From: a virus | Virus record (IMG/VR): IMGVR_UViG_3300021961_000021 | Length of the DNA: 64,000 nucleotides | Direction: 5' to 3' (one strand) | In this document: positions 16,751 to 29,836 of the stretch, piece after piece | How positions within the stretch are numbered: the first letter of the stretch is position 1 | How the letters are laid out: the number at the start of each line of letters is the position of its first letter | Made by a program: the position numbers and the translations under genes | Notes under the pieces: generated by a model | What the model was told of the DNA's origin: nothing | Seen by the model: only the letters and a program-made list of their open reading frames with translations | Database searches by the model: none

Positions 16751-17003
16751 AAACGGAAGGAGGGGGAGTCGAACCCCCAAGGCTGTTACACTCAACTGTT
16801 TTCAAGACAGGTTCCGTCGCCAATCGGATTGCCCTTCCATCTGTATTACCATCGTTCCAATGCCTAACCGCGTTAGCAACAATAGCAATGTTTGTGATCA
16901 GATAGGTAGCAAAGATTACTGTACGAATCAATGCTACTCTATCAGATTCTTGGTCGCAATTACTTGCTTTCTGCCCTAATGCTTTGCACCACAGGTTCCA
17001 CAT
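16743..17003 (-). CDS. Small membrane protein whose 3' end overlaps tRNA-Ser
   Basis: MWNLWCKALG.KA...D.VA.IRT...TN..IVA...RHWN cyanophage-type peptide. No stop until after the tRNA. Confidence 0.6.
   Translation of the reverse strand: MWNLWCKALGQKASNCDQESDRVALIRTVIFATYLITNIAIVANAVRHWNDGNTDGRAIRLATEPVLKTVECNSLGGSTPPPSVYD
16754..16838 (-). tRNA. trnS: tRNA-Ser(TGA)
   Basis: GGAAGGG...CTCCTTCC-G acceptor, anticodon loop CTTGAAA, long variable arm, GGTTCGACTCC T-arm. 85 nt, no encoded CCA. Confidence 0.92.
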
Positions 17004-24982: not shown

Positions 24983-25265
24983 TCGGAATCATCCTAATCT
25001 TTCTCGGATTATAGACACAGTTCTCTCCTAGTTCGCACAATTTAATATAATATTCAGCTTTGACCTGGGAGAGATCCATATATTGTTTGAGATCTCTCCA
25101 CTCATTACCTGTCTGAACTTGAAGTCTGTATCGTATCCGTGTCACATTAGGAAACCATCTCAATTGATATTTATGCGACGGATACCTCTTCAAATCTAGA
25201 AAGATAATTGTAAGCGTAGTGTGTACGAGCACCGTGGATACCCCATCCAATCCAAGAATAGGCAT
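24972..25265 (-). CDS. Hypothetical protein (true start probably GTG near 25145)
   Basis: ORF overlaps the upstream lysozyme gene; only the 3' half looks gene-like. Confidence 0.4.
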   Translation of the reverse strand: MPILGLDGVSTVLVHTTLTIIFLDLKRYPSHKYQLRWFPNVTRIRYRLQVQTGNEWRDLKQYMDLSQVKAEYYIKLCELGENCVYNPRKIRMIPNEQ

Positions 25266-25791
25266 AATTCATATACCTTTCGATGGATTTTCCAGGAACA
25301 CGCATCGCTGATTCAATTCGCTTCCACTGAGTTTCATTAGTTAAGTAACGAAGCTGGGTATGAAGTGATGAAGGATCACCACCATAACGGTTAGCGAAAG
25401 AACCAAGACCAATGTACCTGTTAGTTGAGGTCCATTGAATCAAACCATAACCACCATATCTACAAGCATTATACGAGACTCTACTACCACCCTCACAAAT
25501 GTTTGCGTGGAAGTTAGACTCCTGTTTAATGTTGCCCATAATGGCAGCCAACGAGTTTCGATCTCGGATCCCAACTTCTTGGAAATACGCGAGAGCGAGA
25601 CTTTCATTGTGGTTACACCCTTTACAAATTAGTCTTGTCTCTTTGGGTTCTGGAGCAACCTCTCTGGTCGCTGTCTTCTCAGGTACTGATGGAGGTGGAC
25701 CATCCATTTTGTAATTAGAGAATGGCAGTGTTGCCGTACTGGTTGTAACCGTTACCGCAAGGGGCAGGGCTACTGAAAGGAATTGTTGCAC
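25171..25791 (-). CDS. Secreted phage-tail-lysozyme (Phage_lysozyme2-like) cell-wall hydrolase
   Basis: GTG start, hydrophobic N-terminus, AAIMGNIKQESNF...GGYGLIQWT and Q..YL motifs. Confidence 0.8.
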   Translation of the reverse strand: MQQFLSVALPLAVTVTTSTATLPFSNYKMDGPPPSVPEKTATREVAPEPKETRLICKGCNHNESLALAYFQEVGIRDRNSLAAIMGNIKQESNFHANICEGGSRVSYNACRYGGYGLIQWTSTNRYIGLGSFANRYGGDPSSLHTQLRYLTNETQWKRIESAMRVPGKSIERYMNYAYSWIGWGIHGARTHYAYNYLSRFEEVSVA

Positions 25792-25800
25792 TAAAAATAA

Positions 25801-25867
25801 TAGAACTCTACATCCGAATAGAAGGGGGGTACACCTAACCTCTCAGCAGGCACCTTCCTCGGCTCTA
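25801..25867 (-). ncRNA. Unassigned structured 5' leader (candidate cis-regulatory RNA)
   Basis: Nested stems TAGAGC/GTTCTA, CCGA/TCGG, GGAAGG/CCTTCT and TGCCTG/TAGGTG with a CTGAGAG apical loop, ending 9 nt before the GTG. Confidence 0.5.
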
Positions 25868-25890
25868 AATCAAATCACATTCTCATAGTA

Positions 25891-25916
25891 AAAACCCGCC
25901 ACATTGTGACGGGTTT
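25891..25916 (-). terminator. Terminator after endolysin
   Basis: AAACCCGTCAC-AAT-GTGGCGGGTTT followed by TT. Confidence 0.75.
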
Positions 25917-25943
25917 ACATAGTATCAATTATTTAGGTGTTTG

Positions 25944-26477
25944 TCAACCCTTCTTCCACGCTTCGCCTTCTGCCTTACGGCGGCGAGCAAGACCTGCTTC
26001 TACGTTGGAACCAGGGTTGCGGTACATATAAAGAGCATCAGGAACTAAGTCCCATTCCTTATTTTTAAGTCGCTTAGTAATGGTATTAAAATCACCACTA
26101 CCGTAGAACCCAGCACCCAAATTATAAGCGAAAGAAAGAAGAGCACCTCTCTTACCATCACTCATTTCATTCCAATGAGGAATCTTTTGAAGTGCAGGAA
26201 TGAATTGCTTCTTGCACTGATCAATGAGAAGTTCATCTGCTTCTGCTTGAGTGAGAGTATCTCCCATTTGGAATGCAGAACCATCTTTCTTACGGGTTGA
26301 ACCCCAACCAATAGTGATTGGAAGTCCACCACTCAGAGGATCGGGATATGCATTTAAATGACATCCTTCAAATTCTTTGATCAATTTGATTCCCATCATA
26401 GGAACCTCACCACTTGCGGCAGCAGGAGCACTACTGCCGCTGGTTACTTTCCCAGAGGTTTGCCACAATGAGGACAT
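25944..26477 (-). CDS. GH24 lysozyme (endolysin catalytic domain); probably the C-terminal part of a -1 frameshift fusion
   Basis: IKEFEG.HL.AY.D......TIGWG.T, LLSFAYNLG and GL.RRRKAE. Confidence 0.92.
   Translation of the reverse strand: MSSLWQTSGKVTSGSSAPAAASGEVPMMGIKLIKEFEGCHLNAYPDPLSGGLPITIGWGSTRKKDGSAFQMGDTLTQAEADELLIDQCKKQFIPALQKIPHWNEMSDGKRGALLSFAYNLGAGFYGSGDFNTITKRLKNKEWDLVPDALYMYRNPGSNVEAGLARRRKAEGEAWKKG
26416..26453 (-). other. Putative programmed -1 ribosomal frameshift signal
   Basis: G-GGA-AAG heptamer (26447-53) directly before the TAA, 6-nt spacer, then 10-bp hairpin GCGGCAGTAG-TGCTC-CTGCTGCCGC. The -1 frame is the lysozyme frame. Confidence 0.75.
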
Positions 26478-26677
26478 ACATCTCCCGTTGGAGCGGCAGC
26501 AGCAGGTGCTGCAGGTGCTGCTGCACCTTTCTTACCTCTGTAGATTTCTGCCCAATCAATGTTATCTTCCAGATACTTGATAGGGAGATTATCTTCTAAC
26601 CATTGTACTGCTTTGACGTGGTTAGGGTTCTTCTCATCATAGAATTGAAAGAAGTTGTGTAAATCGATACGTGCCAT
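26444..26677 (-). CDS. Endolysin N-terminal domain protein (77 aa) ending in CPHCG
   Basis: MARIDLHNFF...NHV.AVQWLEDNLP, paralogous to the N-terminus of the upstream C39 peptidase. Ala/Pro linker. Confidence 0.75.
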   Translation of the reverse strand: MARIDLHNFFQFYDEKNPNHVKAVQWLEDNLPIKYLEDNIDWAEIYRGKKGAAAPAAPAAAAPTGDVCPHCGKPLGK

Positions 26678-26688
26678 TTTAGTTCTCC

Positions 26689-27360
26689 TCAATCAAAGAT
26701 GCGACCCCAACCATCGTTGCCACCTGGGCACCAACGATGCTTAAGAACTGCTTTTGTGTAAACGGTTTTCTTACCGTTCTCAACAGGACCACTGTAGTTA
26801 TCATTCAATGAACCATACGGATCATTAACGTAATAACCTTTACCATCAGGTGTCTTACCGATAACAACACACATATGACCACCTGTAGGGTTGGTCAGAG
26901 AACCACGATGTAGGATACCAATAACAACTGGTTTACCTGCATCAAGACTCTTGTCGATATCGGAGAAAGACAAGTTGTAACTAAAATGGGACTTGACACC
27001 ATACGCTTGCAGAACCTTAGTCTGTACAGCGTGGTCAGTTGTGTCACCAATTTCAAATACTTTCTTGACATATTCATCATCGCCTTTAATAGATCCAGGC
27101 TTGAGGAATGCAAGACACATTGCACAGGACGAACTGTTACAAGTTCTATGTGCGTCTCTATAGTTATCTACTTGATTGAAGTAGGGCACATCCAGCACTG
27201 CTGGTGTGGGAGGTTTGGTACGGAAGATAGAAACCCATTCGGTTTCAGAATCATCCATAAACGCTTCTGGAAGATTATCCTCCAACCACTGCACTGCGGC
27301 AACGTGATTGGGGTTCTTCTCATCATAATACTTAAAAAAGTTATGAAGATCTAAAGTCAT
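26689..27360 (-). CDS. Peptidase C39-like cell-wall hydrolase with the shared N-terminal domain
   Basis: LDVPYFNQ...C..SSCAM, GKPVV, GGH..V..G and Y.VNDPYG. Confidence 0.85.
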   Translation of the reverse strand: MTLDLHNFFKYYDEKNPNHVAAVQWLEDNLPEAFMDDSETEWVSIFRTKPPTPAVLDVPYFNQVDNYRDAHRTCNSSSCAMCLAFLKPGSIKGDDEYVKKVFEIGDTTDHAVQTKVLQAYGVKSHFSYNLSFSDIDKSLDAGKPVVIGILHRGSLTNPTGGHMCVVIGKTPDGKGYYVNDPYGSLNDNYSGPVENGKKTVYTKAVLKHRWCPGGNDGWGRIFD

Positions 27361-27398
27361 CGTATGCCGTGATGAGAGGCAAATGTATTTATGTAAAT

Positions 27399-27420
27399 AA
27401 AAAATGCCCCTTTCGGGGCA
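27399..27420 (-). terminator. Terminator after hli
   Basis: TGCCCC-GAAA-GGGGCA followed by a T run. Late promoter for the lysis genes at 27386-27391. Confidence 0.85.
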
Positions 27421-27427
27421 TCACCTA

Positions 27428-27535
27428 TCACCAAATTCCAGGAATGATCTGACCTGTTGCGGCATAGGAACCAATTGCGGCAACGATACCGATCATTGCT
27501 GCCCAACCATTAATACGTTCTGCATTTTCGTTCAT
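27428..27535 (-). CDS. hli: High-light inducible protein (35 aa)
   Basis: Hand-translated MNENAERINGWAAMIGIVAAIGSYAATGQIIPGIW, with ExxNGxxAMxG and TGQIIPG motifs. Confidence 0.93.
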   Translation of the reverse strand: MNENAERINGWAAMIGIVAAIGSYAATGQIIPGIW

Positions 27536-29711: not shown

Positions 29712-29757
29712 AAGAATACCTCACTTCTATAGACTAGACGTATATCCCCTAAGGGAA

Positions 29758-29830
29758 CGGGTCAGGTAGGGATCGAACCTACGACCGACTGCTTAGAAGG
29801 CAGTTGCTCTATCCACTGAGCTACTGACCC
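29758..29830 (-). tRNA. trnR: tRNA-Arg(TCT)
   Basis: GGGTCAG/CTGACCC acceptor, TAGCTCAGTGGATAGAGC D-arm, anticodon loop CTTCTAA, GGTTCGATCCC T-arm. 73 nt, no CCA. Confidence 0.95.
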
Positions 29831-29836
29831 AAGTAG

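Follow-up and report, generated by a model that had tools for sequence, protein, structure and literature searches.

A candidate −1 programmed ribosomal frameshift in the endolysin gene of a T4-like cyanophage

How does a phage make a lysozyme whose reading frame lies out of register with the short gene in front of it? The question is raised by a locus on the minus strand of the IMG/VR virus record IMGVR_UViG_3300021961_000021, of which a stretch of 64,000 nucleotides (the window) was analyzed. There, a 77-aa open reading frame, ORF1, ends on a G_GGA_AAG heptamer and is followed, in the −1 frame, by a GH24 lysozyme. An earlier note on this DNA had proposed that the two are joined by −1 programmed ribosomal frameshifting (PRF) at the heptamer. 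Its coordinates for ORF1, the heptamer, the spacer, the stem, the 244-aa fusion, and the GGAG in front of an ATG at 26477 were all correct on the minus strand. The comparative data presented below support the proposal. Specifically, we consider it quite probable that the locus is a −1 PRF cassette in a late-expressed cyanophage wall-hydrolase gene, and we infer from the sequences of the window and its relatives that ribosomes do slip there.

The candidate slippery site and its conservation

ORF1 (26677-26444, on the minus strand, as are the other features of the locus) is the zero-frame gene. It is preceded by a GAGGAG ribosome-binding site and comprises 77 codons. Its predicted product, the short form, consists of an N-terminal module, an Ala/Pro linker, and the sequence CPHCGKPLGK, which is followed by the stop codon. 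The ORF ends CTG GGA AAG TAA, which places the heptamer (26453-26447) in the X_XXY_YYZ register directly against the TAA (26446-26444); in every relative, the corresponding stop is either TAA or TAG. A spacer of 6 nt, TAACCA (26446-26441), separates the heptamer from a candidate stimulatory stem-loop (26440-26416) of 10 bp, whose arms, GCGGCAGTAG (26440-26431) and CTGCTGCCGC (26425-26416), enclose the 5-nt loop TGCTC. The local fold in the window has an energy of −30.3 kcal/mol (z = −4.1). In an Rfam search of 25800-27500, no hit came close to a threshold.

In the −1 frame, the heptamer region reads GGG AAA GTA ACC AGC, and the frame remains open for 167 codons as far as the TGA at 25946-25944 (26447-25944, stop included). 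These codons specify a Ser/Ala/Gly linker and then the GH24 catalytic domain (Phage_lysozyme, PF00959; 25968..26378), for which the profile match was strong (E 9.6e-23, 81.3 bits versus a cut-off of 22.3). The domain aligns with the solved lysozymes 9kbq, 6et6, and 2anv, the residues FEG..YPD..ITIG corresponding to the catalytic positions. Joining 26677-26447 to the −1 frame thus gives a predicted trans-frame endolysin of 77+167 = 244 aa.

In the mechanism that we propose, ribosomes would translate ORF1 through the N-terminal module, the Ala/Pro linker, and CPHCGKPLGK, and the majority would stop at the TAA to release a 77-aa non-catalytic protein. A fraction would pause at G_GGA_AAG against the stem-loop 6 nt further on and slip by −1, such that GGA is re-read as GGG and AAG as AAA. 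The shifted ribosomes would then pass through the Ser/Ala/Gly linker into the GH24 domain to yield the 244-aa endolysin, a predicted product built like the proteins that relatives encode in one frame. The purpose of such an arrangement would most likely be to fix the ratio of free module to full enzyme, with much module and little enzyme. Slippage by the RNA polymerase was considered unlikely, as the longest homopolymer is only A3.

To avoid circularity, IMG/VR was scanned for relatives without reference to the heptamer, using the peptide CPHCGKxLGK and permitting any synonymous codon. The scan returned 38 loci, 37 from this family and one that was unrelated and GC-rich. All 37 family loci read YTG GGA AAG followed by TAA or TAG in unchanged register; the Cys, Pro, His, Gly, and Lys codons beside the heptamer use all of their synonyms in the same loci. 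Loci with the out-of-frame layout, the heptamer, the adjacent stop, and the stem are referred to as PRF-type. The lysozyme domains of 26 distinct PRF-type copies have diverged to nucleotide identities as low as 74% (38% at shared 4-fold sites). Among the lysozyme codons in which the amino acid is invariant, the third base was also invariant in only 3 of 76, versus 3 of 3 in the heptamer. A second, protein-guided scan of IMG/VR yielded 80 loci, 19 of which were out-of-frame, and all 19 carried the heptamer, the adjacent stop, and the stem.

An out-of-frame lysozyme could also arise from a 1-nt assembly error or from decay of the gene to a frameshifted pseudogene, with other hydrolases compensating for the loss; indeed, the phage has two further wall hydrolases. 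Nevertheless, the same layout recurs across many samples, in the 37 IMG/VR contigs, as well as in 84 protein clusters from wider public metagenomes that overlap partly with these contigs. Moreover, the lysozyme frame is intact in all 26 diverged PRF-type copies, in which substitutions fall mostly at third positions. These data effectively refute error or decay as the source of the layout.

The 84 clusters are those of the short ORF, clustered at 90% identity, in a collection of 5.8 billion proteins. All of them end in ..LGK, all are annotated as hypothetical proteins, and their lengths are 69-82 aa except where the ORF was called longer under a code in which TAG specifies Gln. Read-through of the stop as Gln was considered for three of them (L124-L126) and rejected: the gene callers had used TAG=Q, and the DNA has TAG. 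Another of the clusters, P0031, occurs on a contig of 203,685 bp that NCBI lists under the metagenome-assembled genome of a 'Candidatus Nanopelagicaceae bacterium'; this contig is probably from a cyanophage and was mis-binned with the bacterium. The CPHCGK-stop layout was present in no isolated phage of a 50,697-record collection.

The earlier note had called for relatives to be inspected for in-frame fusions, and such fusions exist. In the isolated phages DSL-LC03 and DSL-LC02, the closest cultured relatives, whose hosts are freshwater Synechococcus, one in-frame gene encodes the module, linker, and GH24 domain as a protein of 222-223 aa, and its annotation is endolysin or lysozyme. A single module-linker-GH24 protein is likewise encoded by 62 of the 82 loci fetched (220-225 aa over the whole set). 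Relative to DSL-LC03 and DSL-LC02, the linker of the window is longer by 62-65 nt, which changes the frame by +2, equivalent to −1. The insert holds CPHCGKPLGK, the stop codon, and the 5' arm of the stem.

A further set of homologues provides natural controls for the PRF reading. Four clusters of longer proteins have an in-frame CxxC linker, and the DNA of two of these was examined. In L121 (cluster P0168), a tandem 4-nt duplication of ACTG together with an A>G substitution has destroyed the heptamer and restored the frame. In L123 (P0220), the stop, spacer, and 5' arm have been lost to an 11-nt deletion. Both loci lack the heptamer and the stem, the pairing in L121 having been degraded by substitutions. 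Their proteins continue with the peptide predicted for the −1 frame (CPHCGKPL..VEG.., ..SPSPVAAQ.., and VEG...AAQ...SGDDMPMTG). On the lysozyme tree, L121 and L123 are each sister to a PRF-type locus (L036 and L086; support 100/99 and 100/100). These in-frame revertants thus indicate that function resides in the trans-frame protein and that a signal for which there is no further need decays.

The stem-loop and probable translation of the −1 frame

All out-of-frame relatives retain the heptamer, stop codon, 6-nt spacer, and stem, the stem with compensatory changes; the earlier note had proposed this comparison as a test. In every distinct sequence (22-23), the helix starts exactly at +7 from the heptamer, with minimum free energies (MFE) of −15 to −26 kcal/mol. 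The stems belong to at least three sequence classes (GCGGCAG.., GGGCAG.., and GGGGTAG..) and have several loop lengths, and the linker peptide encoded by the stem region differs between the classes. Pairs were tabulated using a script anchored at +7, as MAFFT failed on the 3' arms across loop-length classes. In this table, pairs 1-7 of the helix were formed in 161 of 161 cells, and double-sided changes occurred at helix positions 2-7 and 10. Examples of compensatory change include GGGCAGTA/TACTGCCC in L087 and GGACAGCA/TGCTGTCC in L091. Within a class, pairs were swapped from C-G to U-A in L087 and from G-C to A-U in L091.

The potential for independent initiation was evaluated by listing each ATG, GTG, and TTG in the lysozyme frame of 27 distinct PRF-type contexts. 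In the window, the frame contains an ATG at 26475..26477, 4 nt downstream of a GGAG, which the earlier note had put forward as an alternative start. It also contains a pair of ATG codons at the head of the lysozyme domain (26399-26394), 5 nt downstream of a GAGG, that represents a possible internal start. The first of these is disfavored: an equivalent ATG occurs in only 4 of the 27 contexts, and in 15 of them the −1 frame is closed by a TAA, created by GGT AAA, 6 nt before the heptamer. Those 15 contexts have no ATG, GTG, or TTG ahead of the Met pair. The pair itself is present in 25 of 27 contexts, being missing in L015 and L086, and L086 has no ATG whatsoever in the lysozyme frame. The pair is equally present in the in-frame fusions, where it specifies internal residues.

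The codons just upstream of the Met pair, which specify G-D-D-V-P, vary mainly at third positions (GTT/GTC/GTA for Val and CCT/CCA/CCG/CCC for Pro), and we therefore conclude that they are translated in the −1 frame. As the upstream −1-frame stop closes that frame in 15 of the 27 contexts, only a frameshifting ribosome could translate G-D-D-V-P there.

These data bear on an explanation that dispenses with recoding, namely that the insert divided a fusion gene into two and that free lysozyme is made from the ATG codons at 26399/26396 or from that at 26477, possibly by termination-reinitiation. The near-universal Met pair and the GAGG that precedes it in the window are consistent with such a split, as are the facts that T4-type lysozymes function as single domains and that gene callers annotate the two ORFs separately. 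However, a split gene leaves unexplained the three invariant synonymous positions of the heptamer, given that 73 of 76 comparable sites vary, as well as a helix held in fixed register by compensatory changes and the coding-type evolution of G-D-D-V-P. Nor does it account for expression of the enzyme in L086 and L015, and the Met pair on which it relies occurs internally in proteins that are fused in-frame. Based on these considerations, we regard a split gene without recoding as very unlikely.

Several observations nevertheless weigh against the PRF reading. The heptamer sequence GGGAAAG occurs 10 times in the window versus 7.2 expected, and the signal within this single sequence, taken alone, is modest relative to chance; the weight of the case therefore rests on the placement of the signal and on its conservation in relatives. 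Similarly, the pair table was built from the MFE fold of each sequence, which biases it towards pairing, and linker DNA encoding Ala, Pro, Gly, and Ser is intrinsically self-complementary. Helices of 6-12 bp occur somewhere in the in-frame linkers, a helix of ≥7 bp begins at 6.7% of their positions, and 6.7% of dinucleotide shuffles have such a helix at +7. Because the linker DNA pairs with itself so readily, the stem is persuasive only by virtue of its fixed register and compensatory changes. In-frame fusions are the majority of relatives, and the lysozyme tree, which requires at least four changes of state, shows the PRF type to be polyphyletic. These changes indicate that the cassette has been exchanged or lost repeatedly and, together with the in-frame majority, that the short product is not generally required. 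Finally, in addition to the GAGG of the window, a GGTGAT lies upstream of the Met pair in many relatives, and free lysozyme may be produced by internal initiation alongside frameshifting.

This last possibility, a sub-case of the PRF reading, would yield three products: the short form, the full-length enzyme made by frameshifting, and an internally initiated catalytic domain. It draws on the evidence for frameshifting and on that for the split gene combined, and other endolysin genes have documented internal starts, such as that of Ms6 LysA, which gives rise to Lysin384 and Lysin241 (PMC3111421). On the other hand, the two loci that lack the Met pair indicate that internal initiation would not be universal. 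We consider the operation of both routes to be possible, if somewhat unlikely.

The N-terminal module and the phage context

The PRF cassette shares its N-terminal module with the neighboring gene. The module spans approximately 50 aa (26528..26677; DLHNFF..YD..NPNH..WLE..LP), and occurs again at 27214-27360, at the start of a paralogous upstream gene (27360-26689, minus strand) in which it precedes a Peptidase_C39_2 domain identified by profile match. The module is rare, being found in 47 representative clusters among 1.84 billion proteins, in which its partners are GH24, Peptidase_C39_2, and Peptidase_M15_3. It is sometimes duplicated or placed between two catalytic domains. Its predicted structure was confident, with a pLDDT of 85.7. 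A search of the module against Pfam profiles gave no match, whether to wall-binding domains such as LysM, PG_binding, and SH3 or to any other, nor did a Foldseek search of the model against the PDB; the best hit of the model in a wide structure search had a Z of only 2.6, and a search of the ESM Atlas gave no usable match. An AlphaFold model of a full-length in-frame relative was not used, as it was based on a shallow alignment and had a pLDDT of 42.7. Its association with peptidoglycan hydrolases of three kinds makes it probable that the module serves in wall binding, targeting, or oligomerization.

The CPHCGK motif (26459..26476) lies within the linker and would be present in both predicted products. 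Among PRF-type relatives, it is invariant as protein while its synonymous sites vary. Three in-frame fusions (L043, L056, and L067) have CPKCGKG or CSKCGRG in the linker, and CxxCG[KR] is thus an optional linker feature that is independent of frameshifting. CPHC may resemble the active sites of thiol-oxidoreductases or zinc hooks.

The module-C39 gene and ORF1/lysozyme are probably in one late transcription unit. Upstream of the peptidase gene, the minus strand carries a terminator hairpin (27422-27403) and, after it, a T4-late-like ATAAATA box (~27392-27386). After the lysozyme, a terminator-like hairpin read from the sequence, CCCGTCAC/GTGGCGGG with a T run (25890..25913, minus strand), would close the unit; it was absent from the listing of a consensus terminator scan. 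Together, these elements suggest a two-gene late transcription unit. The genes form part of a run of three wall hydrolases (25171-27360, minus strand): the module-C39 protein, the module-CxxC/GH24 protein, and a downstream protein of 206 aa that has a hydrophobic N-terminus and matches Phage_lysozyme2 (PF18013).

Nearby genes include hli, a peroxiredoxin gene, and psbA, and the best matches are to Kyanoviridae, which identifies the window as that of a T4-like cyanophage. The best match to the window in the isolate collection covered 19% of a 12-kb query at 84% identity. The window encodes a tRNA-Ser(TGA) and a tRNA-Arg(TCT), at 16753-16839 and 29757-29831, respectively. Neither a tRNA-Lys nor a tRNA-Gly gene was found in its 64 kb. 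Slippage on GGA_AAG is governed by the host's repertoire of tRNA-Lys and tRNA-Gly.

Comparison with known recoded and two-form systems

A sister arrangement occurs in the cyanophage S-PM2 (NC_006820 115534-116717; L127). There, p156, comprising the module and the C39 peptidase, ends GCA AAA AAG TAA and is followed by a stem. The −1 frame encodes a complete GH24 domain; the annotated 'putative lysin', p157, covers just the C-terminal 72 aa of this domain. The two loci have in common the neighborhood of module, C39 peptidase, and GH24, the −1 frame of the GH24 domain, the stop directly after the heptamer, and the stem; stop and spacer read TAACCAGC in both. They differ in that the S-PM2 heptamer is A_AAA_AAG and its upstream ORF is a whole C39 peptidase, such that the long product would be a fusion of two enzymes. 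In the window, by contrast, the peptidase has a gene of its own, and what precedes the lysozyme is the 77-aa non-catalytic module with its CxxC tail. The cassette of the window is therefore, as judged by its sequence, a putative second and distinct solution at a locus homologous to that of S-PM2.

The heptamer G_GGA_AAG is also the slippery site of lambda G/GT. The −1 frameshifts of tail-assembly-chaperone genes, among them lambda G/GT, were described by Xu, Hendrix & Duda 2004 (as cited in PMC3483164). As in lambda, the cassette of the window is predicted to specify an abundant short product and a rarer, C-terminally extended one with a common N-terminus. The gene families are nevertheless unrelated: in lambda, the products are chaperones encoded beside the tape-measure gene, whereas here the product is a wall hydrolase. 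In addition, the stop directly abuts the heptamer in the window and a strong stem lies 6 nt downstream, unlike in lambda G/GT. The locus does not belong with the tail assembly chaperones, its products being an uncharacterized module and GH24 and its neighbors a C39 peptidase and a PF18013 lysozyme.

Two other systems provide points of comparison. The −1 signal of Escherichia coli dnaX (tau/gamma) is likewise of the bacterial type, combining an X_XXY_YYZ heptamer that ends in A_AAG and a simple stem-loop ~6 nt downstream. The two differ in that the dnaX frameshift product is the shorter one and dnaX uses an upstream Shine-Dalgarno-like stimulator, of which there is no evident counterpart at the locus described here. 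In OrfA/OrfAB of the IS3 family, the N-terminal non-catalytic domain alone makes up the short product; the trans-frame form carries the catalytic domain as well, and the two can interact through the domain that they share. The IS3 proteins are transposases as opposed to lysins, and interaction of the two forms is conjectural in the window.

The products may form a hetero-oligomeric lysin in which frameshifting sets the stoichiometry of an abundant 77-aa form and a rarer lysozyme form, perhaps together with the module-C39 protein. Assembly through the shared module and/or a metal- or disulfide-bridged CPHCG would then generate a multi-enzyme wall-degrading complex. We advance this idea tentatively and consider it unlikely. 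If it were true, slippage efficiency would set the composition of the complex and, together with the S-PM2-type cassette, recoding would be a general principle of cyanomyovirus lysis genes.

Endolysins with two isoforms or a multimeric structure include CTP1L and CD27L. The two forms of Ms6 LysA arise from an internal start, and PlyC is cited alongside it (PMC3111421). In each of these systems, as predicted for the window, one lysis locus gives rise to the full enzyme and an extra non-catalytic or partial module. They do so from two genes or by starting internally in the same frame, and their free module is at the C-terminus, whereas in the window it would be N-terminal and the choice would be between termination and frameshifting.

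The earlier note had stated that it knew of no endolysin among phage frameshifts, a statement that needs to be softened. In the Alteromonas podovirus H4/4, as in the window, a −1 shift is predicted to connect a lysin ORF to another ORF. There, however, the endolysin comes first and is extended by an internal virion protein; the phage is not a cyanophage, and the module is not that described here. Our literature search found tail-chaperone frameshifts and the H4/4 prediction but nothing on cyanophage lysins, and no published description of either the cassette of the window or that of the S-PM2 type. Among tailed phages, tail chaperones and some capsid genes are textbook examples of programmed frameshifting; lysis enzymes, to our knowledge, are not.

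The locus described here is a comparatively well-supported case of predicted frameshifting, and the endolysin family to which it belongs is abundant in aquatic viromes. Annotation pipelines systematically miss the cassette, calling a 'hypothetical protein' and a truncated lysozyme in its place. The cassette also provides a compact, testable frameshift signal for cyanobacterial translation. Our analysis suggests a new route to a two-form lysin, one in which the non-catalytic module is N-terminal. Taken with the S-PM2-type cassette, the data point to repeated use of recoding by cyanomyoviruses to couple or ration their wall hydrolases, which bears on the timing of lysis in these ecologically dominant phages.

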